From: Patescibacteria group bacterium
GTDB taxonomy: Bacteria; Patescibacteriota; Minisyncoccia; Phycocordibacterales; PALSA-1337
Assembly: GCA_018970245.1 (NCBI GenBank)
Contig: JAGWWT010000001.1
Coordinates: 17,548 to 81,547 of the forward strand
Direction: 5' to 3'
DNA: 64,000 nucleotides
Numbering within the stretch: the stretch's first letter is position 1; each line of letters begins with the position of its first letter. The notes beneath the pieces are model-generated. The model saw nothing but the letters and a program-made list of their open reading frames with translations, was not told the DNA's origin and made no database searches. Position numbers and translations under genes: made by a program. Of this stretch, positions 21,502 through 60,348 are shown piece by piece.

Positions 21502-22438
21502 TCACGTTGGCATTGGGGAATACTACTGTTCCGACTCGTGACTGGCCTCCGGTCAGGATCTCAAAACGGTTGTCTTTGCCGTCGCGGATCCGTCGAAGGG
21601 TATTGACCCTGTCCAAGGATTCATCCATTGAGAGGATCTCGCCCCTAGCTTCAGCCGCTGCTTTCAGCTCTTTCGCAGCTTCCAGGTCGGATCGATACTC
21701 GATGATCCTAGCCTCTTTCTGCGTATAGCTGTCGAGGACATCGTCTGGCAAGGAGAACGTGAGCTGGACTCGGTCGATCTCTATACCGAATGTCCTCTCT
21801 TTGAAAAGGTCAGCCCGCAACTTGCGGGTGCCATCGTTCTTCTCGGAGATCGCGTCTTCGACGCAATCTGACAGCTCCTGGCTTCGCTGCATTATGGAGT
21901 TGGCCATCCGAGTCCGAGTGAAGCGGCGAGCGACATTGTCGACTACGCCCTCCATCTCTTCCTGGATGTATTTCCAGCGAGTCGTGTGATCTTTTCCGTT
22001 GCTGACATATATGTCAGTTTCGTTCCTGTCCACACGAGCTCTGATACGCACCCTCCCTTCTAGAGGGATCTTGTCTTTCGACAGGATGGTCACCGGGAAT
22101 TCCATCTCTACCCAGGTGTATTCGATGCTGATGCTCGAGATCCATATGAGAGGCCAATTGCACAGGAAGACGGTGCCGTTCACCGTCGGCGTTTTCCCGC
22201 GTGATTTGTAGATCCTGTCTCTCACCGTGATCGCGCCTATGGTAGGTGGATCAGCGGGGAAGGTTTTGTACCCTGTGACCAGAATCGTCAAGCCGAGCGC
22301 TATCATAGCCAGGCCGACGATGAGATGTATCCAGCTCGGGCCCAAGAATACGAACACCAGGCCCAAGGAGATCAGGAATAGGATGGCCAGCATTATCATA
22401 CCGGTCACCAAATTGCTGAATATTCCAGAATCTTTCAT
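21464..22438 (-). CDS. SPFH/Band-7-like membrane protein
   Basis: Two N-terminal TMs, ILSKD.I, FGIEI.RV, C-terminal helical region. Confidence 0.6.
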   Translation of the reverse strand: MKDSGIFSNLVTGMIMLAILFLISLGLVFVFLGPSWIHLIVGLAMIALGLTILVTGYKTFPADPPTIGAITVRDRIYKSRGKTPTVNGTVFLCNWPLIWISSISIEYTWVEMEFPVTILSKDKIPLEGRVRIRARVDRNETDIYVSNGKDHTTRWKYIQEEMEGVVDNVARRFTRTRMANSIMQRSQELSDCVEDAISEKNDGTRKLRADLFKERTFGIEIDRVQLTFSLPDDVLDSYTQKEARIIEYRSDLEAAKELKAAAEARGEILSMDESLDRVNTLRRIRDGKDNRFEILTGGQSRVGTVVFPNANVNVGGGGNQQKKS

Positions 22439-22639
22439 TTTATCCTTTTGTTGGGATGCCCCGTTCAGGGCGTCGGTTTATTGTTGAAATTGACAACGTG
22501 CAATCATTCGAATCCACGTCTACATTAATTATAGCACAATACACAGTAACGGTCAATAGTCATAATATGGCTATAAGCATGGAAAAGAAAGGGTCCCGAC
22601 CGACTCATTCGAGCCGATCGGGACCTTGAAGTTACAGAG

Positions 22640-23671
22640 CTAACGACGGTGGTAACGACCGCAGCCGTACCCGTACCTGTGTCCGATACAGGAACCATAC
22701 GGGTTAGCGCGACAGTAGCCACGGTTGCCATATCCGTAGCCATAGCCGTAACATGGACCACCTACACAGACGCTCACGCCAGCGTACCCTGGATAGAAGC
22801 TGCCACTATATCCAGGATAATACGTCGGTGCCTGGACGTAAGTCGGCGGCGGAACGAGGGGCGGCGTGACTACTTGTGGCGGTGCTGCTGGTGGCGGTGC
22901 GACCGTTACGGGCGGGGCAGTTGGAACTGTCGCCTGCGGCGGCGCGACCGTATTCGTCAGCACCGATTGAGACGGCGCATAGATCGGCGGCGGCGGGATC
23001 ATGACTGCCGGCGGCGCGACCGTCTTGTTCGTTGACCCGAAGTTGTTGATGATCAACGGACTGTTGATCACGTTCGAGCCTACGATCGTCACCGACTGGT
23101 TGACGCTCAGGCCACCGACGTTGACGCCGGAATCCTGAACCAACCCGCTCGGCACCTCGACCTCTTCGGTCGGAGTGGGCATCGTGGTCTTCACATGCTC
23201 CGGTCCGGAAGTCACCTTCACAGAGCGATTCAGCGAAGCCGTGCCGCTCGCTTTCCGCGCCGCTAGCGTGACAGAAGCATAAATGCCCCAACCGATCAAC
23301 CCGACGACGACTAGCGCCAGAAGAACCATCGCTGCCTTCTCGTAGTCCTTCAAACCAGTCTTCGTGGGCACGGAAGTGGCCGACGTCGTCGCTGCCGTAG
23401 ACGACCGACCGCCGGCTCGCGTCGTTACGCGAGTAGTACGGGTAGTCGTTTTCGTCACAGCGGGAGCCGGTTTCGCGGCCTTAGCCGCTGGAGCCGGTTT
23501 TGTGGCCTTAGCGGCGGCCGGAGCCGCCTTAGGCTTTGCCGCTTTCGGAGCGGCTGCCGGTGCCGGCTTCGAAGCCGGAGCTGTACCGCCAGCGGCTGGC
23601 GCCGGAGGCGGGGGGAGTGCTGCTGTCGGGGGAGGCGTGAAACCGCCTGCCGCTGCATTTTTCTTTGCCAT
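22640..23671 (-). CDS. Low-complexity membrane protein (Ala/Lys/Pro N-terminus, TM, Pro-rich linker, Gly/Tyr/Cys tail)
   Basis: SD-like GAGG before MAKKN; terminator hairpin at about 22590-22628. Confidence 0.7.
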   Translation of the reverse strand: MAKKNAAAGGFTPPPTAALPPPPAPAAGGTAPASKPAPAAAPKAAKPKAAPAAAKATKPAPAAKAAKPAPAVTKTTTRTTRVTTRAGGRSSTAATTSATSVPTKTGLKDYEKAAMVLLALVVVGLIGWGIYASVTLAARKASGTASLNRSVKVTSGPEHVKTTMPTPTEEVEVPSGLVQDSGVNVGGLSVNQSVTIVGSNVINSPLIINNFGSTNKTVAPPAVMIPPPPIYAPSQSVLTNTVAPPQATVPTAPPVTVAPPPAAPPQVVTPPLVPPPTYVQAPTYYPGYSGSFYPGYAGVSVCVGGPCYGYGYGYGNRGYCRANPYGSCIGHRYGYGCGRYHRR

Positions 23672-27368: not shown

Positions 27369-27447
27369 GGAGATTTAAGATTTAAGAATTAAGATTTAAG
27401 GAGCCGGGCAGCAGGCTTAAATCGTAGATCCTAAGTCGTAGATCTTC
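27369..27447 (+). repeat. Heptamer-repeat (AAGATTT) hairpin containing no gene
   Basis: 32-nt arms 27369-27400 and 27416-27447; pairing includes several G-U wobbles and periodic mismatches. Confidence 0.85.
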
Positions 27448-27491
27448 GCATTAGCACTAGAAAGCCAGCACTAGAAAGCTCTTTCATCGAA

Positions 27492-28394
27492 ATGGCCAAT
27501 AGGCACCTATCAAGATCCGTCGTATTGCAATCCCTCTTCGAGTGGGATTTCCGAGGCCGCAACGACAAGGAATCTCCCGAGATAATCTCCCGCAACGTCA
27601 AGGAGTTCGCGCCAGGCATGGCCGATACGTCTTTTATCGACCTTCTCATGAAGGGCATCATGGCCAAGAAGGCCGACCTCGACCAGATCATAGAGAAGGC
27701 CGCCCCGGATTGGCCTATAGACAAGATCTCTCCCGTCGACCGCAACATCCTCCGCCTAGGCCTCTACGAGCTCATATTCGCCGACCGCTCGGAAGTGCCG
27801 GCCAAGGTAGCGATCAACGAGGCCATCGAGCTCGCCAAGACCTTCGGCGGCGAGACATCCGGCCGATTCGTGAACGGCGTCCTCGGCGCCGTATACAAGG
27901 AGCTCGGCGAGCCAGGCAAGGAAGCGGCTCCGGCCAAGAAGAAGAAACCCGCCGAGGTGCCTTACGAGCAGATGCCCATACAGCATCTCGGAGGCGCTGT
28001 TGTGTACGCCAAGAACGAAAAGGACATCTATCTGGCCTTCGTCCATGACATCTTCGGGCACTGGACCCTTTCCAAGGGCAAGATCCCAGAGGGCATCGCG
28101 CCTGACCAGGGCACTATCAACAAAGTAAAAGAAGAGATAGGCCTGGATGTCTCGATCAAGTCCGATCTCGGCACGAATGAATACATCGCCAACGATCCGG
28201 AGATAGGGAAGATCAGGAAGCAAGTCCATTACTATTTGGCGGAGTCCTCATTCACGGACCTCCACCTGGCCAAGAAGCCCGGGCTCGACGACGCCAAGTG
28301 GTTCAAGCTGGCCGATATCTTAGAGCTCAATTTCTATAATGACATCCTGCCCATAGTCACGAAAGCCGTCACGATGCTCGCGCAAGAGAAATGA
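27492..28394 (+). CDS. nusB: Transcription antitermination factor NusB fused to a C-terminal Nudix-like domain
   Basis: W.IDKI..VDRNILRLG.YE, VAINEAIELAK.FG, FVNGVL; tail WTLSKGK...KEEIGL. Confidence 0.92.
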   Translation: MANRHLSRSVVLQSLFEWDFRGRNDKESPEIISRNVKEFAPGMADTSFIDLLMKGIMAKKADLDQIIEKAAPDWPIDKISPVDRNILRLGLYELIFADRSEVPAKVAINEAIELAKTFGGETSGRFVNGVLGAVYKELGEPGKEAAPAKKKKPAEVPYEQMPIQHLGGAVVYAKNEKDIYLAFVHDIFGHWTLSKGKIPEGIAPDQGTINKVKEEIGLDVSIKSDLGTNEYIANDPEIGKIRKQVHYYLAESSFTDLHLAKKPGLDDAKWFKLADILELNFYNDILPIVTKAVTMLAQEK

Positions 28395-29089
28395 AGCCTG
28401 ACCTCGAAAGCCTAGCCAAAAGCTTGGGCGTCCGGTTCAAGGACATCTCCATCCTACGGACAGCCTGCACCCACCGATCCTACCTGAACGAGAACAAGGG
28501 GGCCGGTTTCGAGCACAACGAGCGGCTGGAATTCCTAGGCGATGCCGTCCTAGAGCTGGTCGTCACCAGCTTCCTCTTCAAGAAGTATCCAAAGAAGGCC
28601 GAAGGCGAGCTGACCTCGCTGAGGTCGGCCATTGTGAACACGGTCAGCCTGACCAGAGTGGCCGAGCATATCGGCCTCAATGATTTCCTGCTCCTATCGA
28701 AGGGTGAGCTCCGGGACACCGGCCGCGCTCGCTCGATCATTCTGGCCAACGCCGTCGAAGCCGTGATAGGCGCCATCTACCTCGACCAGGGATATGAGAC
28801 CGCCGGCGGCTTCATATCAGACAAGATCCTCGGGTCTATAGACATCGACGAGATCGCCGCCAAGAAGCTGTGGCTCGACGCCAAGAGCCGATTCCAAGAG
28901 CAGGCGCAGGACAAAGCTGGCAAGACCCCGAGCTACCGCACTCTCCGTGAAGAGGGCCCAGACCATAACAAGCAGTTCACTCTAGGCGTGTTCCTCGGGG
29001 ACGTCCAGGTAGCCTCGGGCACCGGGGCATCGAAACAGGAGGCAGAGCAAAAGGCCGCAGAGAAGGCGCTGGAAGCCAAGGGGTGGTAG
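28391..29089 (+). CDS. rnc: Ribonuclease III
   Basis: HNERLEFLGDAVL signature and dsRBD. Confidence 0.98.
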   Translation: MKPDLESLAKSLGVRFKDISILRTACTHRSYLNENKGAGFEHNERLEFLGDAVLELVVTSFLFKKYPKKAEGELTSLRSAIVNTVSLTRVAEHIGLNDFLLLSKGELRDTGRARSIILANAVEAVIGAIYLDQGYETAGGFISDKILGSIDIDEIAAKKLWLDAKSRFQEQAQDKAGKTPSYRTLREEGPDHNKQFTLGVFLGDVQVASGTGASKQEAEQKAAEKALEAKGW

Positions 29090-29183
29090 GCAGGGAGCCG
29101 GCAGCTGTGGATAAGTCTCTTCCGAGCGCGTGATGGGCGGGGATCGTGGTGGTATAATCTGACCGAATCGTCCTTTCACTATT

Positions 29184-29444
29184 ATGGGTATCAGCCTTTC
29201 GCACGACCTCGCCGTCCTTCTGGCTGCGAGCAGTCATGGGAACAAAGATGCGGCTGCATCTTCTGGGAGCTCGCCAAAGATAGCCCGCGAGCTGGAACAG
29301 GAATACCATCCGCCCTGCCAATTCCGGAGCGGAAAGAAGTGCATGGCATTCGTGCCCCGCTGCGACCAGTGCTCGCACATGGATGAGTCTGCCAAGAAGC
29401 CTTCCCTCTGGGAGGTGCTCCTGGGACTCGATCCGATCAACTGA
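29184..29444 (+). CDS. Small hypothetical protein with four Cys
   Basis: TATAAT at 29153; C..C..CxxC pattern; terminator CCGCC-TATT-GGCGG-T7 follows. Confidence 0.55.
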   Translation: MGISLSHDLAVLLAASSHGNKDAAASSGSSPKIARELEQEYHPPCQFRSGKKCMAFVPRCDQCSHMDESAKKPSLWEVLLGLDPIN

Positions 29445-29474
29445 TAGCTCGCCGCCTATTGGCGGTTTTTTCAT

Positions 29475-29526
29475 ATCTCCAATCTCTAATATCTAATCTC
29501 TAATATCTAATCTCTAATCTCCAATC
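29475..29526. repeat. Heptamer tandem repeat (AATCTCT/AATATCT)
   Basis: About 7 units immediately upstream of smc. Confidence 0.9.
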
Positions 29527-42535: not shown

Positions 42536-42542
42536 TAAAATT

Positions 42543-42991
42543 GCAGAATTAGGAATTAAGAATTAAGATTTATGGATGGGTCTACTAGACGCTCCAAGAA
42601 GCAAGATCAGATCATTCACAGACCTCAAATCCTGGAAGGAAGGCCATGGATTAGTAGTCTTGACCTATAGGATAACGGCAAAATTCCCGCGTTCTGAGCT
42701 TTATTCTCTCACTGATCAGATGCGTAGAGCTGCTTCTTCAGTAACCGCAAATATAGCGGAAGGGTTCGGGAGGCGAAGCTATAAAGAAAAGATCCAATTC
42801 TACTATCATTCACAGGGTTCTTTGACTGAATTGAAGGATCATATTTTGACAGCTAAGGATATCGGATATTTGAATGAGGATGATTTAAGATCCTTGGCAG
42901 AATCGGCCAATATGACTCACAGATTGCTTCAAGGACTCATAACGAAATCCAAGTCCTTCTTAAATCTTAAATCCTGATTCTTAATTCCTGC
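42543..42991 (+). other. Inverted-repeat-bounded cassette carrying a four-helix-bundle gene
   Basis: Arms 42551-42572 and 42968-42989 form a 22-bp stem (one G-U, one mismatch). Confidence 0.75.
42576..42977 (+). CDS. Four-helix-bundle protein (23S rRNA IVP family)
   Basis: F.DL..W, FP..E.Y.L..QMRRAA.S...NIAEG.GR, GS..E. Confidence 0.92.
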   Translation: MGLLDAPRSKIRSFTDLKSWKEGHGLVVLTYRITAKFPRSELYSLTDQMRRAASSVTANIAEGFGRRSYKEKIQFYYHSQGSLTELKDHILTAKDIGYLNEDDLRSLAESANMTHRLLQGLITKSKSFLNLKS

Positions 42992-42998
42992 TCAGCCC

Positions 42999-44303
42999 AT
43001 GCAACCCATCAAGAAAGCCATAATAAGCATCCTCACACTGGAGTCCAGGCTCATACTGCGCAAATACAGGCCATTCATCGTGGCCGTGACCGGCAGCGTA
43101 GGCAAGACTTCGACCAAGGACGCGATCTTCAGCGTCTTCAAGGGCCAAGGCGGCTATGTGCGGAAGAGCGAGAAGAACATGAACAGCGACATCGGCTTGC
43201 CGCTCACGATCATAGGCGTGCCGAATGCTTGGCGCAGCCCTTCGGCTTGGCTGAAGAACATAAGGGCCGGCCTGAGGCTCATCCTGTCCAAGAATGAATA
43301 CCCGGATTGCCTGATCTTGGAGGTGGGTGCGGATCACCCGGGAGACATCAGCAGGACGGTGAGATGGCTCAAGCCGGACATCGCCGTGATCACCAAAGTC
43401 TCGCAGACGCCGGTCCACGTAGAGTTCTTCAAGTCGCCTGAGGACGTCTTCAAGGAGAAAGCATCGCTCGCCGAAGGCGTCAAAGCCGGAGGGACAGTGA
43501 TCCTCTTTGCCGACGACGCGAAGGTCATGTCGATCGCCGATATGGTCAAAGCCAAGCAGTCGAGGATAGCGACCTTCGGGACAGCCGAAGGGTCGACGGT
43601 CAAGGGTTCTGGCTTCGAGACGGCATACGACGAGCAAGGCAGGCCGAAGGGGATCGCCTTCGGCATGCAGATGGGGTCGACGAGCCTGCGCGCATCGGTG
43701 GACGGCATACTGGGGCGCACATTCATGTACCCTCTCCTCACAGCGGCCGCAGCGGCTCAAGCGAGGGGTATCGATGCGGAAAAGATCGCCGAAGGCATCA
43801 ATTCCTATGAGGCGCCCAGGGGCAGGATGAACATCATAGAGGGCGCGAATGGCTCGATGATTATAGACGACACCTACAATTCCTCGCCCGATGCAGCCGA
43901 AGCGGCCCTAGAGACGATCAAATCGCTACGATGCGCCGGCTCGAAGATCGCGGTTCTCGGAGACATGATGGAGCTTGGCAAATTCTCGGCAGAGGAGCAC
44001 AGGAAGATCGGCGCGGTCGCAGCCTCATCGGTCGATCGGCTAGTGACAGTGGGGCCTAGGTCGCGTGCGACGGCGGAAGAAGCGGGGAAGAAAGGCCTCT
44101 CTCAGGCGATGATCGCGTCGTTCGATTCCGCAGACGAGGCCGCAAGCTTTCTCAAGCCGCTCGTAGGCCCTGGCGATACGATCCTGGTCAAAGGATCGCA
44201 ATCAGTGCGCATGGAGCGGGTCGTGAAAGCCCTGATGCGCTCGCCTGAAGACGCTGAGAAGCTGCTTGTCCGGCAGGAGCCGGAATGGCTGAGCAGGGCC
44301 TGA
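42999..44303 (+). CDS. murF: UDP-MurNAc-tripeptide--D-Ala-D-Ala ligase
   Basis: VTGSVGKTSTK, N.N..IGLPLT, IDDTYNSSP, LGDMMELG, VKGS. Confidence 0.92.
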   Translation: MQPIKKAIISILTLESRLILRKYRPFIVAVTGSVGKTSTKDAIFSVFKGQGGYVRKSEKNMNSDIGLPLTIIGVPNAWRSPSAWLKNIRAGLRLILSKNEYPDCLILEVGADHPGDISRTVRWLKPDIAVITKVSQTPVHVEFFKSPEDVFKEKASLAEGVKAGGTVILFADDAKVMSIADMVKAKQSRIATFGTAEGSTVKGSGFETAYDEQGRPKGIAFGMQMGSTSLRASVDGILGRTFMYPLLTAAAAAQARGIDAEKIAEGINSYEAPRGRMNIIEGANGSMIIDDTYNSSPDAAEAALETIKSLRCAGSKIAVLGDMMELGKFSAEEHRKIGAVAASSVDRLVTVGPRSRATAEEAGKKGLSQAMIASFDSADEAASFLKPLVGPGDTILVKGSQSVRMERVVKALMRSPEDAEKLLVRQEPEWLSRA

Positions 44304-49148: not shown

Positions 49149-51374
49149 ATGGCTGTACCCGATAGCTTTTTGAAGCCCTACGATCCTGGGGCTACCGAAG
49201 ACCGCATATACTCGCTCTGGGAGAAGAGCGGCTTTTTCGATCCTGACGATCTGCCTGAAAGGAACAAGAATGGCGAGCCTTTTTCCATAGTCCTGCCCCC
49301 GCCTAACGTGACAGGCACCCTCCATATGGGCCATGCCGCCATGCTCGCTATCGAGGACATAATGATCAGATACAAGCGGATGCGCGGATACAGGACATTG
49401 TGGCTTCCTGGCACGGATCACGCAGCCATCGCCACGCAATCCAAGGTCGAGAAAGAGATAGTCAAGAAGGAGGGCAAGAATCGCCACGACCTAGGACGAG
49501 AGGAGTTCCTGAAGCGCGTTGGCGAGTTCGCCAAGAATAGCCACGACACGATAGTCAATCAGGTCCGCAAGATGGGCGCTTCAGTCGACTGGTCGCGGGA
49601 AGCATTCACTTTGGATGAGAAGCGCTCCTTCGCTGTCCGGACCGCCTTCAAGCGCATGTACGATATGGGCCTCATTTACCGCGGCAACCGCATCGTCAAT
49701 TGGGATCCGAAGGGGCAGACCACTATCTCCGACGATGAGATCGTCTATAAGGAAGAGAAGACGAAGTTCTATTATTTCAAATACGGCCCGTTCGTCATCG
49801 GCACAGCCAGGCCTGAGACGAAGTTCGGCGACAAGTACGTCGTCATGCATCCGGACGATGCGCGCTACGCCGCTTACAAGCATGGCCAGAAGATCGACCT
49901 TGAATGGATAAACGGCCCTATCACGGCGACGGTCATCAAGGATGCTTCTATCGACATGGAGTTCGGGACCGGCGTCATGACGATCACGCCTTGGCACAGC
50001 GCTGTGGATTTCGACATAGCCGAACGGCATAAGCTCGACAAAGAGCAGATCATCGATACATTCGGCAAGCTCCTGCCCGTAGCGGGCGAGTTCGCCGGCA
50101 TGAAGATCGCCGAAGCCAGGCCCAAGATCGTGGAGAAGCTCCGCGCTAAAGGCCTCGTAGAAAAGGAAGAAGACTACGTCCACAACATCGCTACCGCTGA
50201 GCGCACTGGCGGCCTAGTGGAGCCTCAGATCATGAAGCAATGGTTCGTCGGGGTGAATACGAGGTTCGAGATCCCGGGCGCCAAAAAAGGCTCGAGCAGC
50301 AAGACTCTCAAAGAGATTATGAAGGAAGCTGTCGAGTCCGGAAAGATAAAGATCATTCCTGACAGATTCGAGAAGATCTATTATCACTGGATAGACAATC
50401 TCCGCGATTGGTGCATCTCGCGCCAGATCTGGTATGGGCACAGAGTGCCGGTGTGGTACAGGAGGGCAGAGATTGGAGATGAGAGATTAGATATTAGAGA
50501 TGAGAGATCAGAGACTAGAGAGGAGGTGTATGTGGGCGTGGAGGCGCCGGAAGGGGAAGGTTGGAGACAAGATGAAGACACTCTCGATACCTGGTTCTCG
50601 TCGGGCCTCTGGACATTCTCGACCCTAGGCTGGCCGGAAGAGACCGAAGACCTCAAGCTCTACCACCCGACCGACGTCCTCGAGACGGGCTATGACATCC
50701 TCTTTTTCTGGGTGGCCAGGATGATCCTCATGACCGGATGCCTTCTCGGTGATGTACCGTTCAAGACAGTCTATCTCCATGGCCTCGTCCGCGATGGGAA
50801 GGGCCGCAAGATGTCCAAATCGCTGGACAACATCATCGATCCTCTGGACATGATCAAGAAGTACGGCGGCGACGCCACGCGCCTGTCGCTCATCATCGGC
50901 ACCGGACCAGGGAACGATCTCAAGCTCTCCGAGGACAAAGTCCGCGGCTACAAGAATTTCGCTAATAAGCTCTGGAACATCACTCGTTTCGTCCTGGAAT
51001 CAGCCGGCGGCGAGGCCATCGACAAAGCCTTCGAAGGCTACACGGACGCAGACGCCAAGCTCCGCAAGGCCAGGCGTGCGTTCCTGGAAGAGATCACCCG
51101 CGAAATGGAGGAGTTCAAATTCTACCTGGTAGGCGAAAAGCTATATCACTATGCCTGGCATGAATTCGCGGACAAGATCCTAGAGGATAGCAAGAAGATA
51201 TTCAGGGAGGGGGATGAAAAGGCCCAGAGGTCACGCCGCCAGCTTTTGCTCCATACGCTGGACGATATCTTGCGGGCTCTGCATCCATTCATGCCATTCG
51301 TGACTGAAGAGATCTGGAGGGCTATGGATCGGGATCAGGGCATGCTCATGGTCCAGGAATGGCCGATCGCCTAA
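49149..51374 (+). CDS. valS: Valine--tRNA ligase (short form)
   Basis: PPPNVTG.LHMGH, DHAAIATQ, DWCISRQ.W.GH, LDTWFSS, KMSKS. Confidence 0.97.
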   Translation: MAVPDSFLKPYDPGATEDRIYSLWEKSGFFDPDDLPERNKNGEPFSIVLPPPNVTGTLHMGHAAMLAIEDIMIRYKRMRGYRTLWLPGTDHAAIATQSKVEKEIVKKEGKNRHDLGREEFLKRVGEFAKNSHDTIVNQVRKMGASVDWSREAFTLDEKRSFAVRTAFKRMYDMGLIYRGNRIVNWDPKGQTTISDDEIVYKEEKTKFYYFKYGPFVIGTARPETKFGDKYVVMHPDDARYAAYKHGQKIDLEWINGPITATVIKDASIDMEFGTGVMTITPWHSAVDFDIAERHKLDKEQIIDTFGKLLPVAGEFAGMKIAEARPKIVEKLRAKGLVEKEEDYVHNIATAERTGGLVEPQIMKQWFVGVNTRFEIPGAKKGSSSKTLKEIMKEAVESGKIKIIPDRFEKIYYHWIDNLRDWCISRQIWYGHRVPVWYRRAEIGDERLDIRDERSETREEVYVGVEAPEGEGWRQDEDTLDTWFSSGLWTFSTLGWPEETEDLKLYHPTDVLETGYDILFFWVARMILMTGCLLGDVPFKTVYLHGLVRDGKGRKMSKSLDNIIDPLDMIKKYGGDATRLSLIIGTGPGNDLKLSEDKVRGYKNFANKLWNITRFVLESAGGEAIDKAFEGYTDADAKLRKARRAFLEEITREMEEFKFYLVGEKLYHYAWHEFADKILEDSKKIFREGDEKAQRSRRQLLLHTLDDILRALHPFMPFVTEEIWRAMDRDQGMLMVQEWPIA
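50466..50520 (+). repeat. Heptamer repeat (AGAGATT family) inserted in frame in valS
   Basis: GCAGAGATTGGAGATGAGAGATTAGATATTAGAGATGAGAGATCAGAGACTAGAG encodes AEIGDERLDIRDERSETR. Confidence 0.85.
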
Positions 51375-55049: not shown

Positions 55050-55055
55050 GTGTGC

Positions 55056-55259
55056 ATGAGCAAGCATCAAGCCATCAGGGCCATTCGTGTCGAGATCGAG
55101 AGGCTCAATCAGGAGATCGACCTCAAGATCATAAGAGGCGCTTCGTACAGGCGCGAAGCTCTCCGGCACAAGACCCTGATGGCGCAGCTCGCTCGTTTGT
55201 CGCCGCGCAGGAAGTATTTCGCCGGGTTCGGCAATTTCGTAAGGATGTTCCTATTTTGA
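55056..55259 (+). CDS. Small basic hypothetical protein, first gene of the lexA operon
   Basis: ATG 6 nt after the -10 element; LN.EID.KII.G.SY..EA..HK. Confidence 0.7.
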   Translation: MSKHQAIRAIRVEIERLNQEIDLKIIRGASYRREALRHKTLMAQLARLSPRRKYFAGFGNFVRMFLF

Positions 55260-55261
55260 AT

Positions 55262-55825
55262 ATGGATTCATACAAGAACAAGATCATATATTTCTACAGG
55301 CGCACGAAGCGCATGCCCAGCTATGCGGAGATAATGTCTCTGCTCGGCTTCAAGTCCAAGAATGCCGTCTACAAATTGGTGAACAAGCTCGTGAGCGAGG
55401 GTGCTTTGGATAAAGATTCGCAGGGACGGCTAGTACCGAACCGCCTTTTCGGAGAGGTGCCTGTCCTCGGATTGGTCGAGGCGGGATTTCCCACCGCTGC
55501 CGAGGAGGAGCTCGTAGATACTATGAGCCTCGACGAATATATGATCGAGAACAAAGAGGCCACCTATATGCTCGAGGTAAAGGGCGATTCTATGATCGAG
55601 GCCGGCATCCAGGAAGGCGACCTTGTCATCGCTGAAAGAGGCAAGGAGCCCAAGCCTGGCGATATCGTCATTGCCGAGGTCGACGGCGGATGGACGATGA
55701 AATATTTCCGTAAGACCGGCAACCAAGTGTGGCTGGAGCCTGCGAACAAGGCGTACAAGCCTATCTATCCCGAAGCCGATCTCAAGATCGCCGCCGTCGT
55801 GAAGGGGGTGATCAGGAAATATTAA
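55262..55825 (+). CDS. lexA: LexA-family repressor (S24 peptidase)
   Basis: wHTH MPS..EI...LGFKS, cleavage site AG(F)P, V.GDSM, catalytic K in TMK. Confidence 0.88.
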   Translation: MDSYKNKIIYFYRRTKRMPSYAEIMSLLGFKSKNAVYKLVNKLVSEGALDKDSQGRLVPNRLFGEVPVLGLVEAGFPTAAEEELVDTMSLDEYMIENKEATYMLEVKGDSMIEAGIQEGDLVIAERGKEPKPGDIVIAEVDGGWTMKYFRKTGNQVWLEPANKAYKPIYPEADLKIAAVVKGVIRKY

Positions 55826-55857
55826 ATATCAAAGATTAAAAATTAAAAACAACAACC

Positions 55858-56226
55858 ATGAAAATCAGAGGCGTTGACTATTTCTTCTATAACGTGAGCG
55901 ATATCAAGAAGTCTCTGGCGTTCTATCGCGACGTCATGGGATTGGAAGTGACCGATGAGCAGGAGAAGTGGGCGGAATTCGATTGTGGGAACCTGACTCT
56001 CGGCATAGGCGTATTCGGAGCCGATCCCAAGGCTGCAAAGAACGGCGCGGCTGTGGCTTTATCTGTCGATAATGTGGAAGATGCGGTGGCTGAATTGAAG
56101 GGTAAAAAAGTGAAGATCGTCACGGAACCTATGGATTTCCCGGATATGTGCGAGATGGCTATCATAGCCGATCCCGATGGCAACCAGATCATCCTCCATC
56201 ATCGGAAGGATGGAAGCGTTGGATGA
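55858..56226 (+). CDS. VOC/glyoxalase family protein
   Basis: VSD..KS.AFY.DV.G, DPDGN. Confidence 0.9.
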   Translation: MKIRGVDYFFYNVSDIKKSLAFYRDVMGLEVTDEQEKWAEFDCGNLTLGIGVFGADPKAAKNGAAVALSVDNVEDAVAELKGKKVKIVTEPMDFPDMCEMAIIADPDGNQIILHHRKDGSVG

Positions 56227-57527
56227 TCCTAACCCACAGATCGTTCCCGCGTGCGATACTCCACGTAGATGGCGACAGCTTTTTCGCCTCGTGCGAGGTC
56301 GCCAAGGATCCGAGCCTGAAGGGCAAATGCGTGGTCACTGGCAAGGAGCGTGGCATAGCGAGCTCCATGAGCTACGAAGCCAAAGCCCGTGGCGTTACGC
56401 GGGCGATGCGGCTGTCCGAGATCAAAAAGCTCATCCCAGACGTGATAATTTTGCCGTCGGACTATGAGACGTACAGCCTGTATTCGCAGCGCATGTATGA
56501 GATCGTACGGCGCTATACGGACGCTGTCGAGGAGTATTCGATCGACGAATGCTTCGCGGATCTCACGGGGATGCGCCGGCCCAACAACATGTCGTACGAG
56601 GCTATGGCCGAGAAGATAAAACGCGAATTGGACGGCGAGCTCGGCATGACGTTCTCGGTTGGTTTGGCTTTGAATAAAGTCACGGCCAAGGTGGCCAGCA
56701 AATGGCGGAAGCCGTCCGGATTGACGATCATTCCTGGCTACCATCTTCATCTTTATTTGGCAAAGACCCCGATAGAGAAGATCTGGGGCATCGGTCCGCA
56801 GACTTCTTCATATTTGATAAAGAAAGGCGTGAAGACCGCCTTGGATTTCGCCATGAAGGAAAAAGAATGGGTCAAAGCGCTTTTTTCCAAGCCGTTCCAG
56901 GAGATCCATTCGGAACTGAATGGCGATTTTGTGTATCCTTTGACCGTCGGTGAGAAGCACGACTACGCTTCCATATCTAAAACGCGGACATTCACGCCAC
57001 CCTCGAAGGACAGGGGATTCGTCTATTCGCAGCTATCCAAGAATATCGAGAATGCCTGCATAAAGCTGCGCCGGCACAACCTCTTCGCCAAGGCCTTCGC
57101 TTTCTATCTGAAGACACAGGACTTCAGGTACAGCGGATTGGACTTCAAACTGAGCCAAGCTGTCTCCGTGCCCCAGGAGATATTGAAGATAGTCAGCGAG
57201 CGATTCGACGATGTGTACAGACCAGGCTTCGAATACAGGGCTACCGGCGTGGTCCTCATGGAATTGAGCCATTCTGATGCCCGTACGCTCGACCTATTCG
57301 GCCGATCTGGCGCGATAGACAGGATAAAGCGCGTCTATGAGGGCGTAGATGCCGCCTGCGCCAAGTTCGGCAAGCATGCCGTATTCCTGGGGTCTTCATT
57401 CAGGGCCATGAATGAGCCTGCGCATAGGGGCGATAGGGCTGATTCGTCAGAAAGGCGCAAGAATCTCGTCAAAGGAGAGAACGAAAGGCAGAGAATAGGG
57501 TTGCCATTCCTGGGAGTTGTCAAATAG
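56223..57527 (+). CDS. dinB: Y-family DNA polymerase (Pol IV/UmuC-like)
   Basis: HVDGDSFFAS.E, SYEAKA.GV, YSIDE, KP.G, IWGIG. Confidence 0.92.
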   Translation: MILTHRSFPRAILHVDGDSFFASCEVAKDPSLKGKCVVTGKERGIASSMSYEAKARGVTRAMRLSEIKKLIPDVIILPSDYETYSLYSQRMYEIVRRYTDAVEEYSIDECFADLTGMRRPNNMSYEAMAEKIKRELDGELGMTFSVGLALNKVTAKVASKWRKPSGLTIIPGYHLHLYLAKTPIEKIWGIGPQTSSYLIKKGVKTALDFAMKEKEWVKALFSKPFQEIHSELNGDFVYPLTVGEKHDYASISKTRTFTPPSKDRGFVYSQLSKNIENACIKLRRHNLFAKAFAFYLKTQDFRYSGLDFKLSQAVSVPQEILKIVSERFDDVYRPGFEYRATGVVLMELSHSDARTLDLFGRSGAIDRIKRVYEGVDAACAKFGKHAVFLGSSFRAMNEPAHRGDRADSSERRKNLVKGENERQRIGLPFLGVVK

Positions 57528-57554
57528 AATCAGTTCGTGTATGATGTTTCGACT

Positions 57555-57875
57555 ATGGAATTCGCCGTAATACAAACAGGTGGGAAGCAGTATACCGTCG
57601 CCAAAGGCGATGTTATAACCATTGAGAAGCTCCCTGGCGAGCATAAGGAGGGCGATAAGGTCGTCTTCGACAAGGTCCTCCTCATGGATAACGGCAAGGA
57701 CACCACTATCGGCACTCCCTATATAAATAAAGCCTCGGTCCAGGGCACGATCACCAAGATCGGCCGCGCTGCCAAGGTCCTCGTCGTCAAATATATGCAG
57801 AAGAGCCGCTCAGGATGGAAGCGCAATGGCCACAGGCAGCCCTTCTTCCAGGTCAAGATAGATGCGTTGAAGTAA
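57555..57875 (+). CDS. rplU: 50S ribosomal protein L21
   Basis: AVIQTGGKQY.V, GHRQ. Confidence 0.96.
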   Translation: MEFAVIQTGGKQYTVAKGDVITIEKLPGEHKEGDKVVFDKVLLMDNGKDTTIGTPYINKASVQGTITKIGRAAKVLVVKYMQKSRSGWKRNGHRQPFFQVKIDALK

Positions 57876-57882
57876 GGGAGGG

Positions 57883-57922
57883 TAGATATTAGAGATTAGA
57901 GACTAGAGATTAGAGACTAGAG
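57883..57922. repeat. Heptamer repeat (AGAGATT/AGAGACT) overlapping the recR stop
   Basis: TAGATATTAGAGATTAGAGACTAGAGATTAGAGACTAGAG. Confidence 0.85.
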
Positions 57923-58518
57923 CGCCGGTTTTGGAGGGCGCTCTTTATCGTTTCAGAGTCGGCATATTCGAGCTCTGCGCCTGTGGATAGGCCCCGTCCT
58001 AGGACAGTGATCCGAGCCGGCGAGACTTTTGCCAAACCTTCGTGCACGATCTTTTCGGTGTGCTCGCCATCAGGGGTCGTATTCAGGGACAGGATGATCT
58101 CCGTCAGCGTCGATTCGGATGCGCGTTCCAAGAGCTGCTGCAGCCTTATGCGCTTCTCGGGCTCCTTGTCTAGTATGGGCACAGTGCCGCCGAGGATGAA
58201 ATATAGGCCTTTGTATGCGCCTGATCTTTCGACAGTCTCGAAGTCCGAGTCTCTGGCGACGACCATCAGCGTGGATCGGTCTCGGCTCTGATCGGCACAT
58301 GTCGGACAGAGGTCTGTTTTTTGAGCCCTATGGAAGAAGAACCTATGGCACTTCTCGCATTCGCTGGTCGATCGGCGGACGTCGGCGACTAGGTCGGTGA
58401 ATTCCTTGATCGAAGCAGGAGACTTGTTGAGCAGATAATAGACGAACCGCTTGGCCTGGCGAGGGCCGATGCCTGGGAAGCGGGAGAATATCTCTTCTAG
58501 GCGGTGTAGGGAATCCAT
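57910..58518 (-). CDS. recR: Recombination protein RecR
   Basis: PGIG...A.R, C4 zinc finger, TOPRIM, G.ELEYAD. Confidence 0.94.
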   Translation of the reverse strand: MDSLHRLEEIFSRFPGIGPRQAKRFVYYLLNKSPASIKEFTDLVADVRRSTSECEKCHRFFFHRAQKTDLCPTCADQSRDRSTLMVVARDSDFETVERSGAYKGLYFILGGTVPILDKEPEKRIRLQQLLERASESTLTEIILSLNTTPDGEHTEKIVHEGLAKVSPARITVLGRGLSTGAELEYADSETIKSALQNRRSSL

Positions 58519-58541
58519 GGGAGTAGAGCGGAGAGTAGAGA

Positions 58542-58969
58542 GCAGAGATTAGAGATTAGAGATTAGATTAGAGAGGGAATTGGTTTTTGTGATCAGGCCC
58601 TGCAGCAGGCGATGGGCGCTGCTGATCCGATCACTGGCCTCATTGTAGTCTTTTTCTGAGATGTATGAAATATCCCTCGAAAGGATGAGCTGGTTCTCGA
58701 GCTCTGACATCGAGCCGCGAGCTTGGTAATAGAAATGCGCTTTGTCCTTGTATGTCCTGCGTCCGAAGCCCTCGGCGATATTGGACGTGATCGATACGGC
58801 TGACCTTCTCATCTGGCCTGCAAGGCCAAAGAGCTCTTCCTTCGGGAATTTCCTCGTCAAATCATACACGCCCATTACAAGGCGGTGTGAGACCTGCCAA
58901 GCCTGCAAATCTGTGAATTTGACGATGCCACCCATATATGCCCTCTAATATCTAATCTCTAATCTCTGC
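58542..58969 (-). other. Inverted-repeat-bounded cassette carrying a four-helix-bundle gene
   Basis: Perfect 19-bp IR GCAGAGATTAGAGATTAGA (58542-58560 / 58951-58969), extending to 26 bp with one mismatch. Confidence 0.8.
58549..58935 (-). CDS. Four-helix-bundle protein (23S rRNA IVP family)
   Basis: FTDL.AWQ, FP.EE.F.L..QMRRSAVSITSNIAEGFGR, ARGS..E. Confidence 0.93.
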   Translation of the reverse strand: MGGIVKFTDLQAWQVSHRLVMGVYDLTRKFPKEELFGLAGQMRRSAVSITSNIAEGFGRRTYKDKAHFYYQARGSMSELENQLILSRDISYISEKDYNEASDRISSAHRLLQGLITKTNSLSNLISNL

Positions 58970-58974
58970 CCCCC

Positions 58975-60348
58975 CTAAAATCCGCCAAAATCCGCCTTTT
59001 CCATCGAGAGGAACGTCGTCTTCTTTGAGTCGAAGAATAGCTTGGCCACGCCGGTCGGGCCGTTGCGGTGCTTCTCGATCATGATCTCAGCCTCTTCCTT
59101 GCGGCCGCCATTGTCCTGGTCGGCTTCGCGGTGTATGAACATGACCACATCGGCATCTTGCTCGATAGAGCCGGAATCGCGCAAGTCAGAGAGGCGGGGC
59201 TTGCCGCCGCGCTGCTCGACGGCGCGGGAAAGCTGGGAGAGGGCTAGGACCGGCACTTCCAATTCGCGGGCAAGGGTCTTGAGCGACCTGGATATCTCGG
59301 TTACCTGCTGCACTAGGTTGTCATTGCCGCGCGTCTGTGTAGGGATCATGAGCTGGAGATAGTCGACGATGATGAGTCCGAGGCCCTTCTCGTTCTTGAG
59401 GCGGCGGGCGACAGCGCGCATCTTGATTATGTTGTTCCCGGGCTGGTCATCTATGAAGATGGGCGCTTCAGAGAGCTTGGATATGGCGTCGCCGATCGCC
59501 CGGAAGTCCTCCTGCACGGAAAGATTGTGGCCGGTGCGGATCTTCCAGGCGTCGACCTGGGATTCGGCTGAGAGCATGCGATCGACGAGCTGCTGGGAGC
59601 TCATCTCTAGCGAGAATATGGCGACCGGGACCTTGAAATTGACAGCGGCCTTGCGGGCTATGTCCAGGGCGAGCGAGGTCTTTCCCATGGACGGCCTGGC
59701 GGCGAGGATGATCAGGTCGGATTTCTGGAAGCCGGCCAGCTTGTTGTCCAATTCCGGGAAGCCGGTGTGGACGCCTCGGATCTCGCCGCTGGTCTTGTGG
59801 AGATGGTCCAAGCGCTCCCAGGCCTCGTTTAGCGTGTCCTTGAGGGCCACGAATTTGTGCGAGCCGGTCTTGTTCGTCACGGCATAGAGCGAGCGCTCGG
59901 CTTTTTCGAGGATCTCGTGGAGCTCCGCGTCCTCCTCATAGCCCAGGGCGGTGATATTCTCGGCAGCGCGCAGAAGCTCGCGCATCACATGCTTCTTTTC
60001 GACTATCTCGGCGTAATTGGAAGCGTTGGTCGATGAGGGGACGAGGTTTATGAACTCTGTCAGCGCCGACATGCCGCCGACCTGCTCCAGCTCGCCCTTT
60101 TCCTTGAGCCTGGCTGAGACGGTCAGGACGTCGATCGGGGAGTTCTTGGTATGGAGCTCGAAGAGCGCCTCCCAGATCATCCTGTGCGCGGTGGAGTAGA
60201 ACGACTGCGACGAGACGATGTCGACGATGTCGTGCATCACCTCGCCGCGGATCATGACCGACCCGAGAAGGGCCTTCTCAGCTTCGATCGAATTCGGAGG
60301 GATCTTCAGGTCCTTGGTCTTGAAATAGGGAGAAGGGTTGTTGTTCAC
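58975..60348 (-). CDS. dnaB: Replicative DNA helicase DnaB (GTG start)
   Basis: PP.S.EAE, AARPSMGKT, FSLEM, VDYLQL, LSQLSR, DLRDSGSIEQDAD, KHRNGPTG. Confidence 0.98.
   Translation of the reverse strand: MNNNPSPYFKTKDLKIPPNSIEAEKALLGSVMIRGEVMHDIVDIVSSQSFYSTAHRMIWEALFELHTKNSPIDVLTVSARLKEKGELEQVGGMSALTEFINLVPSSTNASNYAEIVEKKHVMRELLRAAENITALGYEEDAELHEILEKAERSLYAVTNKTGSHKFVALKDTLNEAWERLDHLHKTSGEIRGVHTGFPELDNKLAGFQKSDLIILAARPSMGKTSLALDIARKAAVNFKVPVAIFSLEMSSQQLVDRMLSAESQVDAWKIRTGHNLSVQEDFRAIGDAISKLSEAPIFIDDQPGNNIIKMRAVARRLKNEKGLGLIIVDYLQLMIPTQTRGNDNLVQQVTEISRSLKTLARELEVPVLALSQLSRAVEQRGGKPRLSDLRDSGSIEQDADVVMFIHREADQDNGGRKEEAEIMIEKHRNGPTGVAKLFFDSKKTTFLSMEKADFGGF

Follow-up and report, generated by a model that had tools for sequence, protein, structure and literature searches.

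The junction between dnaB and recR in the window, the whole 64,000-nucleotide stretch of Patescibacteria group DNA analysed here, carries on its minus strand a cassette of approximately 430 bp in which the ORF of an intervening-sequence protein (IVP) is enclosed by inverted arms of AGAGATT heptamers. In our best reading, to which we assign a probability of roughly 45%, this cassette would be an old gene-in-hairpin element, built to the design of 23S rRNA intervening sequences and resident in operon junctions, whose protein may bind its cognate arms and promote copying of the heptamer by host repair. Given that the heptamer is matched to the protein lineage and recurs in dispersed copies in the host, the protein likely recognises this heptamer and helps it to spread. 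Neither a transposase nor a reverse transcriptase forms part of the element.

The IVP gene (58549-58935, minus strand) encodes a four-helix bundle protein of 128 aa from the PF05635/TIGR02436 family, and its last codons and stop are supplied by the distal arm (58542-58567, minus strand), which is pyrimidine-rich on the mRNA and continues as degenerate units to approximately 58521, just ahead of the recR start. The purine-rich upstream arm (58944-58969, minus strand; AGAGATT/AGATATT units) begins 5 nt past the stop codon of the upstream host gene dnaB (58975-60348, minus strand; TIGR00665 above cut-off), and the downstream host gene recR follows at 57910-58518 on the same strand (TIGR00615, E 3e-43; 147.5 bits, slightly below the cut-off of 162.55). 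An initial annotation of this DNA had described a perfect 19-bp inverted repeat extending to 26 bp with one mismatch, a stop codon within the distal arm and ends reading GCAG...CTGCTC. We confirmed each of these features at this locus (58542-58560 with 58951-58969; 58542-58567 with 58944-58969; TAA at 58549-58551); as signatures of the family, however, the last two did not hold, since 4 of 88 armed cassettes had GCAG close to the start of the arm and 28 of the 88 had their stop within the aligned distal arm. The folded cassette RNA had a z-score of -5.1 and 0 of 100 shuffles folded as well, and the source genome (G000) contained 92 period-7 tracts compared with 5 in its codon-shuffled copy; a chance origin of the arms and repeats is thus excluded. 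No Rfam match at E <= 1 was obtained in 57400-59200, and a promoter and terminator scan was uninformative (5 promoter-like sites versus 1.9 expected; 2 terminators versus 2.6 expected).

The first cassette of the window (42545-42987, plus strand) holds a paralogous IVP gene at 42576-42977 between AGAATTA/AGATTTA arms and belongs to a different clade. The three peptide motifs quoted in the initial annotation as common to both cassettes were recovered in the protein alignment, at 51% identity. In run X4, a contig of depth 7.66 joined 42539 to 42999 via six letters, with the first cassette absent, and read depth in the first-cassette bin was 5.2 against approximately 11.5 on either side; the contig may represent a first-cassette-less allele in a co-occurring close relative, which at 88% likeness may be another strain or species. 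In run X1, a contig of depth 2 joined both arms of the first cassette with 26 other letters between them. Among the 15 of 31 contig joints listed from four DNA runs, which consisted of contigs only, none switched strands, skipped or flipped the dnaB-recR cassette, or deleted recR between direct tracts, a result that carries little information. An invertible, phase-variable segment was rejected, because the ORF was never found in both orientations and all 10 cassettes known at this junction (10/10) are co-directional with dnaB and recR.

Scored against family models, the dnaB-recR ORF reached 127.3 bits with PF05635 (23S_rRNA_IVP; cut-off 33.8) and 117.9 bits with TIGR02436 (cut-off 24), and failed the Avd model (29.8 bits; cut-off 80). 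Its predicted structure consists of four helices (pLDDT 95.7), and the best fold match was Xcc0516 (PDB 2GSC; TM-score 0.86 by query length, 38% identity, rmsd 0.5-0.7 Å), followed by BT_0352 (PDB 2RLD) and then by Avd (PDB 4DWL, 8UB7). Xcc0516 and BT_0352 are the closest solved structures, with five chains in each entry, and on this basis IVP would assemble into a pentameric ring of the kind formed by Xcc0516 and Avd. No nuclease or recombinase chemistry is known for this fold. Moreover, the ORF is under purifying selection, with pN lower than pS in 42 of 42 close pairs (at least 72% identity).

By location, the cassette is not a 23S rRNA intervening sequence, as its flanks are dnaB and recR and not an rRNA gene, yet a long terminal stem of complementary ends surrounds its ORF as in such sequences. 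The 23S rRNA intervening sequence of Coxiella burnetii, which contains an S23p ORF, is armed with heptamers and is cut by RNase III according to the accessible text (PMC4990558), resembles it in the PF05635 protein, in length (428 nt versus approximately 430), in terminal stem (28 versus 26 bp), in tandem heptamers at the 5' end and in sporadic distribution (PMC4990558). The two differ in that the Coxiella sequence sits in rRNA helix 45 (PMC4990558), whereas the cassettes here occupy protein-gene and tRNA junctions, and in that the present genome has seven paralogs with different heptamers, an ORF under purifying selection and dispersed gene-less copies. In the view of its authors, the Coxiella ORF is degenerating and yields no protein in vivo (PMC4990558). 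A second likeness is to Avd, which shares the four-helix fold (TM-score 0.74-0.76 by query length) and belongs to a family of pentameric rings described, in the part of the source available, as binding approximately 30 nt of nucleic acid (PMC6182149); homology between PF05635 and Avd has been noted (PMC10053308, in its accessible portion). IVP nevertheless has 12-13% identity to Avd, scores below the cut-off and lacks an adjacent reverse transcriptase, template repeat or variable repeat. Identity as the Avd of a diversity-generating retroelement (DGR) was therefore rejected on the 29.8 versus 80 bits and on the position of the only reverse transcriptase match of G000, which lies on another contig with its own avd-like gene. 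The dnaB-recR cassette is thus neither a 23S intervening sequence by location nor a DGR Avd, but shares the construction of the former and the fold of the latter.

A third, gene-less tract of the AGAGATT heptamer (57883-57922, plus strand) starts 8 nt past the stop codon of the convergent gene rplU (L21; 57555-57875, plus strand; TIGR00061 above cut-off), which anchors it, and encodes the recR stop codon on the opposite strand. Directly after it, an 8-bp hairpin was read from the sequence (57919-57944, plus strand) at the position where relatives have a hairpin and a T run after rplU; here the T run is weak and the terminator scan made no call. Upstream of rplU, in the interval 55052-57527, lie genes for a LexA-like peptidase and for a DNA polymerase IV/UmuC-like protein, together with a small ORF that resembles glyoxalases, and an AAATATT tract is located in this LexA-like/UmuC-like region at 55817-55847.

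The initial annotation had proposed that this third tract is an alternative partner for the upstream arm and could loop out recR. The tract indeed repeats the distal arm in direct orientation and is complementary to the upstream one, with which it forms a duplex as strong as that of the near arm (-50.3 versus -48.6 kcal/mol), and the far-tract stem wins in the minimum-energy fold of the 1111-nt minus strand at 57870-58980, whereas the centroid structure shows neither stem. An explanation at the mRNA level, in which the dnaB-recR transcript is regulated through excision of the IVP message by RNase III or through looping-out of recR by the alternative stem, could further draw on the RNase III gene (rnc) present in G000, on the cleavage of the 28-bp heptamer stem in Coxiella (PMC4990558, accessible text) and on the occurrence of a tract after the rplU stop in 8/8 cassette genomes with rplU in the locus compared with 9/57 others, some of these calls being doubtful. 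The unit of that tract equals the local arm unit, by eye, in 6 of the 8. However, the near arm is transcribed approximately 620 nt before the far tract, which makes loop-out unlikely to be its purpose; in G005, G010 and G108 the tract remains at the rplU stop, in many cases immediately ahead of a terminator-like hairpin, even where other DNA parts it from recR; G003 and G090 contain a separate partner arm for it beyond the recR stop; and 50 of 91 relatives have dnaB and recR without the stem. Looping out of recR is possible in silico and, with the third tract anchored at the rplU stop, probably incidental. RNase III cleavage of the cassette mRNA stem is itself plausible, because the enzyme is encoded and cuts the similar Coxiella stem (PMC4990558, same portion). 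The RNase III gene lies at approximately 28415-29074 in the window (region approximately 27371-29526), with an AGATTTA hairpin on one side and, on the other, an AGAGATT-type tract located ahead of smc.

Arm mismatches comprised 48 G-U and 57 A-C pairs (p = 0.44), and the sense stem was more stable than the antisense stem in 46 of 88 cassettes, so that a wobble bias towards sense RNA was rejected. This lack of transcript-strand preference fits a DNA-level palindrome or symmetric copying, and, together with the points above, leaves the mRNA-level explanation improbable in our judgement.

Among relatives, the junction was compared in a sample of 93 genomes of the genus (0.4-1.1 Mb), 91 of which yielded recR. 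The empty dnaB-recR sites that the initial annotation suggested looking for were found in 50 of the 91 (10-160 bp), with 18 holding other DNA, 10 an IVP cassette and 6 arms or a tract only or a gene-less hairpin; in the remaining 7, dnaB fell outside the fetched locus. Presence at the junction corresponds to 10 changes on a quick RecR+DnaB host tree (90 rows, G068 dropped). G069 is filled, whereas in its close sister G074 the site is empty (15 bp); a G069-type distal arm persists in G080 without the IVP gene, behind an unrelated insert. No target-site duplication was visible when G069 and G005 were set against the empty site of G074, the sites having diverged. The junction also accepts unrelated small genes and is thus a generally tolerant site; in one case (L061, G021:C4), an early stop in recR lies directly behind a cassette of a distant IVP subfamily. 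The 10 cassettes at this junction are built from several different units, with complementary arms in each, which bears out the earlier proposal that structure and 7-nt periodicity are kept as the unit changes.

To place these occupants, 99 of the 104 IVPs above cut-off in the genus were analysed. A quick tree (97 rows, 2 short rows dropped) distributed the 10 occupants over three groups. In a careful tree of 36 rows, G000, G003, G004, G005, G069 and G108 formed clade i (support 97/99) and G002, G084 and G089 formed clade ii (support 100/100), and the union of the two, that is one origin for 9 of 10 occupants, was not rejected (p-AU 0.48; 41% of bootstrap trees). The careful tree and the AU test therefore reduce the three separate origins of the quick tree to at least two, with the occupant in G021, from a distant IVP subfamily, as the sole secure independent one. 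Clades i and ii were seen at the dnaB-recR junction only, and comparison of G000 with G005, which has the closest relative of the dnaB-recR IVP, shows saturation at synonymous sites; with a single origin of 9/10 occupants not rejected, these observations indicate that the cassette is old rather than recent, faithful to its site and without sign of recent movement. Its GC3 is 0.64, near that of recR (0.67); that of the first cassette is 0.43. The phylogeny accordingly upholds one half of the earlier description of a second, independent cassette: the two window IVPs are paralogs in separate well-supported clades, whereas independent insertion calls for caution with a clade that is old and site-faithful. 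Other single IVP clades occupy several junctions with one heptamer type each, and at several junctions the resident IVPs of different genomes are unrelated.

Arms are a nearly constant companion of the protein. With armed defined as an inverted-arm score of at least 12, 88/99 IVPs of the genus were armed compared with 23/476 swapped pairs, and outside the genus the figures were 66/80 loci and 35/397 swapped pairs. Among 135 armed genes, arm 5-mer similarity exceeded 0.3 in 0.5% of cross-genome pairs below 40% identity and in 81% of those at 70% identity or more. Furthermore, arm 5-mer profiles matched in 27 of 33 cross-genome pairs of at least 70% identity outside shared locus clusters (a clustering of our own that may split some shared loci), whereas arm types matched in only 2 of 75 same-genome paralog pairs, in agreement with the earlier suggestion that each paralog may have its own repeat. 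The more identical two proteins are, the more alike their arms (Mantel rho 0.24; 0/500 permutations as high), and the arm type shifts as proteins diverge: in clade i, none of the arm 5-mers of G000 recur in G069 or G004, and the arms of G003 resemble those of clade ii. Individual cassettes show further variation. In L047 (G014:C29), the frame of an armed IVP continues through the distal arm into a 618-aa ORF; L113, L117, L120 and L085 are armed cassettes between two tRNA genes, as read from their flanks; and in L258 (Bacteroidota) the arm period is apparently 8, not 7.

A shared history of arms and ORF would equally be predicted by linkage alone. In such a passenger model, heptamer hairpins are propagated by the host through slippage, template switching or gene conversion, a captured IVP hitchhikes and is kept for an unrelated job, and heptamer type follows the clade through linkage only. 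The near-universal arming of the family is unlike a random passenger, and G000 keeps seven paralogs with seven arm types and not one homogenised type; we regard this model as rather unlikely, and further evidence on it comes from the dispersed copies.

All seven G000 IVP genes above cut-off have their own arm unit (AGAGATT, AGAATTA, AGGAGTA, AGGTTAC, AAAGTCG, AAATATT and AATAACC), and six of the seven scored as armed, the copy on C96 running into the contig end. When the 92 tracts of the genome were typed by hand, 55 corresponded to the seven IVP arm types, 19 to two types without an armed IVP in the assembly, and 18 stayed untyped. These two types are GGTATTT, with 14 tracts (on C36, C72, C96 and others) including four complete hairpins with loops of 13-15 nt, and AAGTATT, with 5 tracts; IVPs with such arms occur in other genomes. 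In same-type inverted pairs within 600 nt, the purine-rich arm came first in 11 of 11. On our own rough gene calls, 29 of the 74 typed tracts lie in purine form just after a stop, 18 in pyrimidine form just before a start and 19 within coding frames (12 purine-sense, 7 pyrimidine-sense), and 8 are without a close gene end. In-frame tracts were observed at 50468-50521 of the window and at C96:34829-36412 and C87:1948-2676 of G000, and the genes containing such tracts, as read from translations, include valS, ileS (two), recO and polA (two different types). Mixed junctions, where the purine arm and the pyrimidine arm that follows it differ in heptamer type, were noted at C54:588-664, C85:260-326 and C58:67750-67858, the first two apparently being copies of a single locus. 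At C81:721-795, a perfect AATCTGA x10.7 array had no partner arm that we could find.

This gene-end polarity would suit a regulatory interpretation, in which the IVP ring would be a repeat-binding RNA regulator under autocontrol via its arms and the gene-end tracts its selected regulon sites. The same polarity has been published for the dispersed heptamers of Xanthomonas and Nostoc, whose purine-rich form follows stops and whose complement precedes starts (PMC4692102, accessible text); for the dispersed TAACTGA heptamers of Beggiatoaceae, MacGregor proposed a mobile repeat-binding protein (PMC4679880, accessible text), and Avd binds RNA specifically (PMC6182149, available part). Against it stand the lack of strand preference in the arms, the in-frame tracts in both orientations and the turnover of sites and types between sister genomes, so that we consider regulation as the primary role unlikely. 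The published repeats of these organisms resemble those of G000 in their period of 7, their position near gene ends and their partial in-frame occurrence, and differ in that the accessible texts name no partner protein family (PMC4692102, PMC4679880). Our literature search, which covered few subscription journals, found no published link of PF05635 genes to heptamer arms outside rRNA, and the ProPhylo paper draws none between the PF05635/TIGR02436 family and 7-mer repeats.

REP elements with their RAYT transposases, and MITEs, are dispersed gene-less palindromes that match the ends of a gene-bearing copy. The present repeats are alike in being gene-less, dispersed, intergenic and matched to the ends of the gene-bearing cassette, and unlike in that the enclosed IVP is not an HUH or DDE transposase. 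Dependence on a RAYT was rejected for G000 and several repeat-rich relatives: in these incomplete assemblies, G000 has no PF01797 (Y1_Tnp) above cut-off, and none was found in G089, G071, G022 or G003. A Y1 transposase occurs in 49 of the 93 genus genomes. The GxxExxY family (PF13366), considered as another partner, had no match in G000.

Subsequently, genome-wide pattern matches were related to the resident IVP clade. For four other clades, 201/279, 65/89, 80/111 and 120/142 matches fell in the 3-5 genomes holding the clade, and for three of the four, placed on the host tree, the hosts do not form one group (4-5 changes). For the dnaB-recR clade the correspondence is looser: G000's own unit had 69/115 matches in clade genomes, 60 of them in G000 itself, and the broader clade-i pattern had 52/310, with none in G004 and G069, a low share that arises partly because the broader pattern catches G087's own arm type. 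In G005, the commonest dispersed type (29 matches) is closer to the arms of G069 than to its own. Over seven patterns, at least 5 matches were found in 26/49 IVP-bearing and 5/44 IVP-less genomes, and at least 20 matches to a pattern in 12/49 and 0/44, respectively. The statistical support is overstated, because matches overlap and include arms, patterns were drawn from arms and related genomes are not independent. In five genomes outside the genus, off-cassette cognate tracts were present in 4/5 and non-cognate ones in 2/20 cells; 68 pattern matches in viral contigs included no relative. Collectively, dispersed copies concentrate in genomes with the matching IVP clade, imperfectly so for clade i.

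These distributions also bear on the passenger model. Heavy repeat loads only in IVP-bearing genomes speak against it, whereas the persistence of tracts (5-17 matches) in five IVP-less genomes (G028, G074, G076, G078 and G080; 86-99% complete) and the two G000 types without an armed IVP speak for it. Close to the cassettes, a cognate tract was found within approximately 1.2 kb of 15/84, six of them at the dnaB-recR locus, compared with 5/804 non-cognate trials, a few of the 15 possibly being arm extensions. We read these nearby tracts as probable seeding in the vicinity of the cassette; template switching over short distances, starting in the arms and without the protein, would fit them as well.

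Copies also enter coding sequence. The RecR loop between two CxxC motifs contains in-frame heptamers of the local type in G002, G003, G005 and G084, and in G005 cognate heptamers replace loop sequence that is kept in four sister genomes. This change resembles patch replacement, as would be expected if IVP acted like Avd with a reverse transcriptase in trans, for example a DGR enzyme, and arm cDNA replaced short chromosomal patches. The common fold of Avd and IVP, the DGR-type reverse transcriptase locus in G000 and a reverse transcriptase match in 62/93 genus genomes would suit such a route. Nevertheless, in these incomplete assemblies a reverse transcriptase was found neither in the repeat-rich G002 (91% complete, with 100 matches) and G071 (99% complete, with 23 matches) nor in G003 and G004; the DGR of G000 has its own avd-like gene, and none of these enzymes is encoded beside the cassette. 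We hold the route to be highly improbable. The DGR-like locus itself (C96:20685-23292) lies between nusG and rplK and comprises a target gene, a template-like repeat, an avd-like ORF on the opposite strand (21878-22219) and the reverse transcriptase (22234-23292), at whose 5' end a TGGCGGC x6.6 tract is found.

Returning to our preferred reading, copying by host repair with the help of the protein, its steps can be outlined as follows. The IVP protein likely binds the heptamer arms of its own lineage, as a hairpin or single strand, at about one arm length (25-35 nt) per ring; the idea of ring binding comes from the homologous Avd pentamer, which protects a specific RNA of approximately 30 nt, again about one arm length (PMC6182149, available part). 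Host repair or template switching, helped by IVP, would then copy the heptamer to other gene boundaries. The element itself would move only rarely to new junctions, and its spread or loss at an occupied junction would proceed via recombination through the conserved flanks. Any cleavage of the mRNA stem by RNase III would be a side effect.

Several observations count against this reading. All links are correlations among related genomes, with patterns taken from the arms. The clade match is weakest for the clade of the dnaB-recR cassette itself (52/310), five IVP-less genomes have 5-17 matches, and 19 of the 92 G000 tracts are without an armed IVP and 18 untyped. Clade i is confined to dnaB-recR, with no trace of recent movement and no visible target-site duplication, the fold offers no known nuclease or recombinase chemistry, and the Coxiella ORF is described as decaying (PMC4990558, accessible text).

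A bolder version, possible and in our view still doubtful, is that the IVP paralogs are sequence-specific readers and spreaders of heptamers that, without a transposase, place their own 7-mer at the borders of genes and within protein loops that tolerate it. If it were true, the IVP family would be the trans-acting cause of the heptamer excess long noted in prokaryotes, and insertion into 23S rRNA would be one instance among many for a far more widespread element. Two open questions meet here, namely the role of the widespread PF05635 family and the excess of 7-base repeats in bacteria, whose over-representation is stated to be unexplained in the accessible texts (PMC4692102, PMC4679880). The single locus is an ordinary, old family member; what is added is evidence, drawn from across the genus, that the type of repeat goes along with the protein lineage. 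The seven G000 paralogs with their seven arm words offer a ready matrix of cognate and non-cognate pairs for binding, and if the protein does spread the repeat, it would belong to an element that needs no transposase, alters the ends of genes and introduces peptides into essential proteins.
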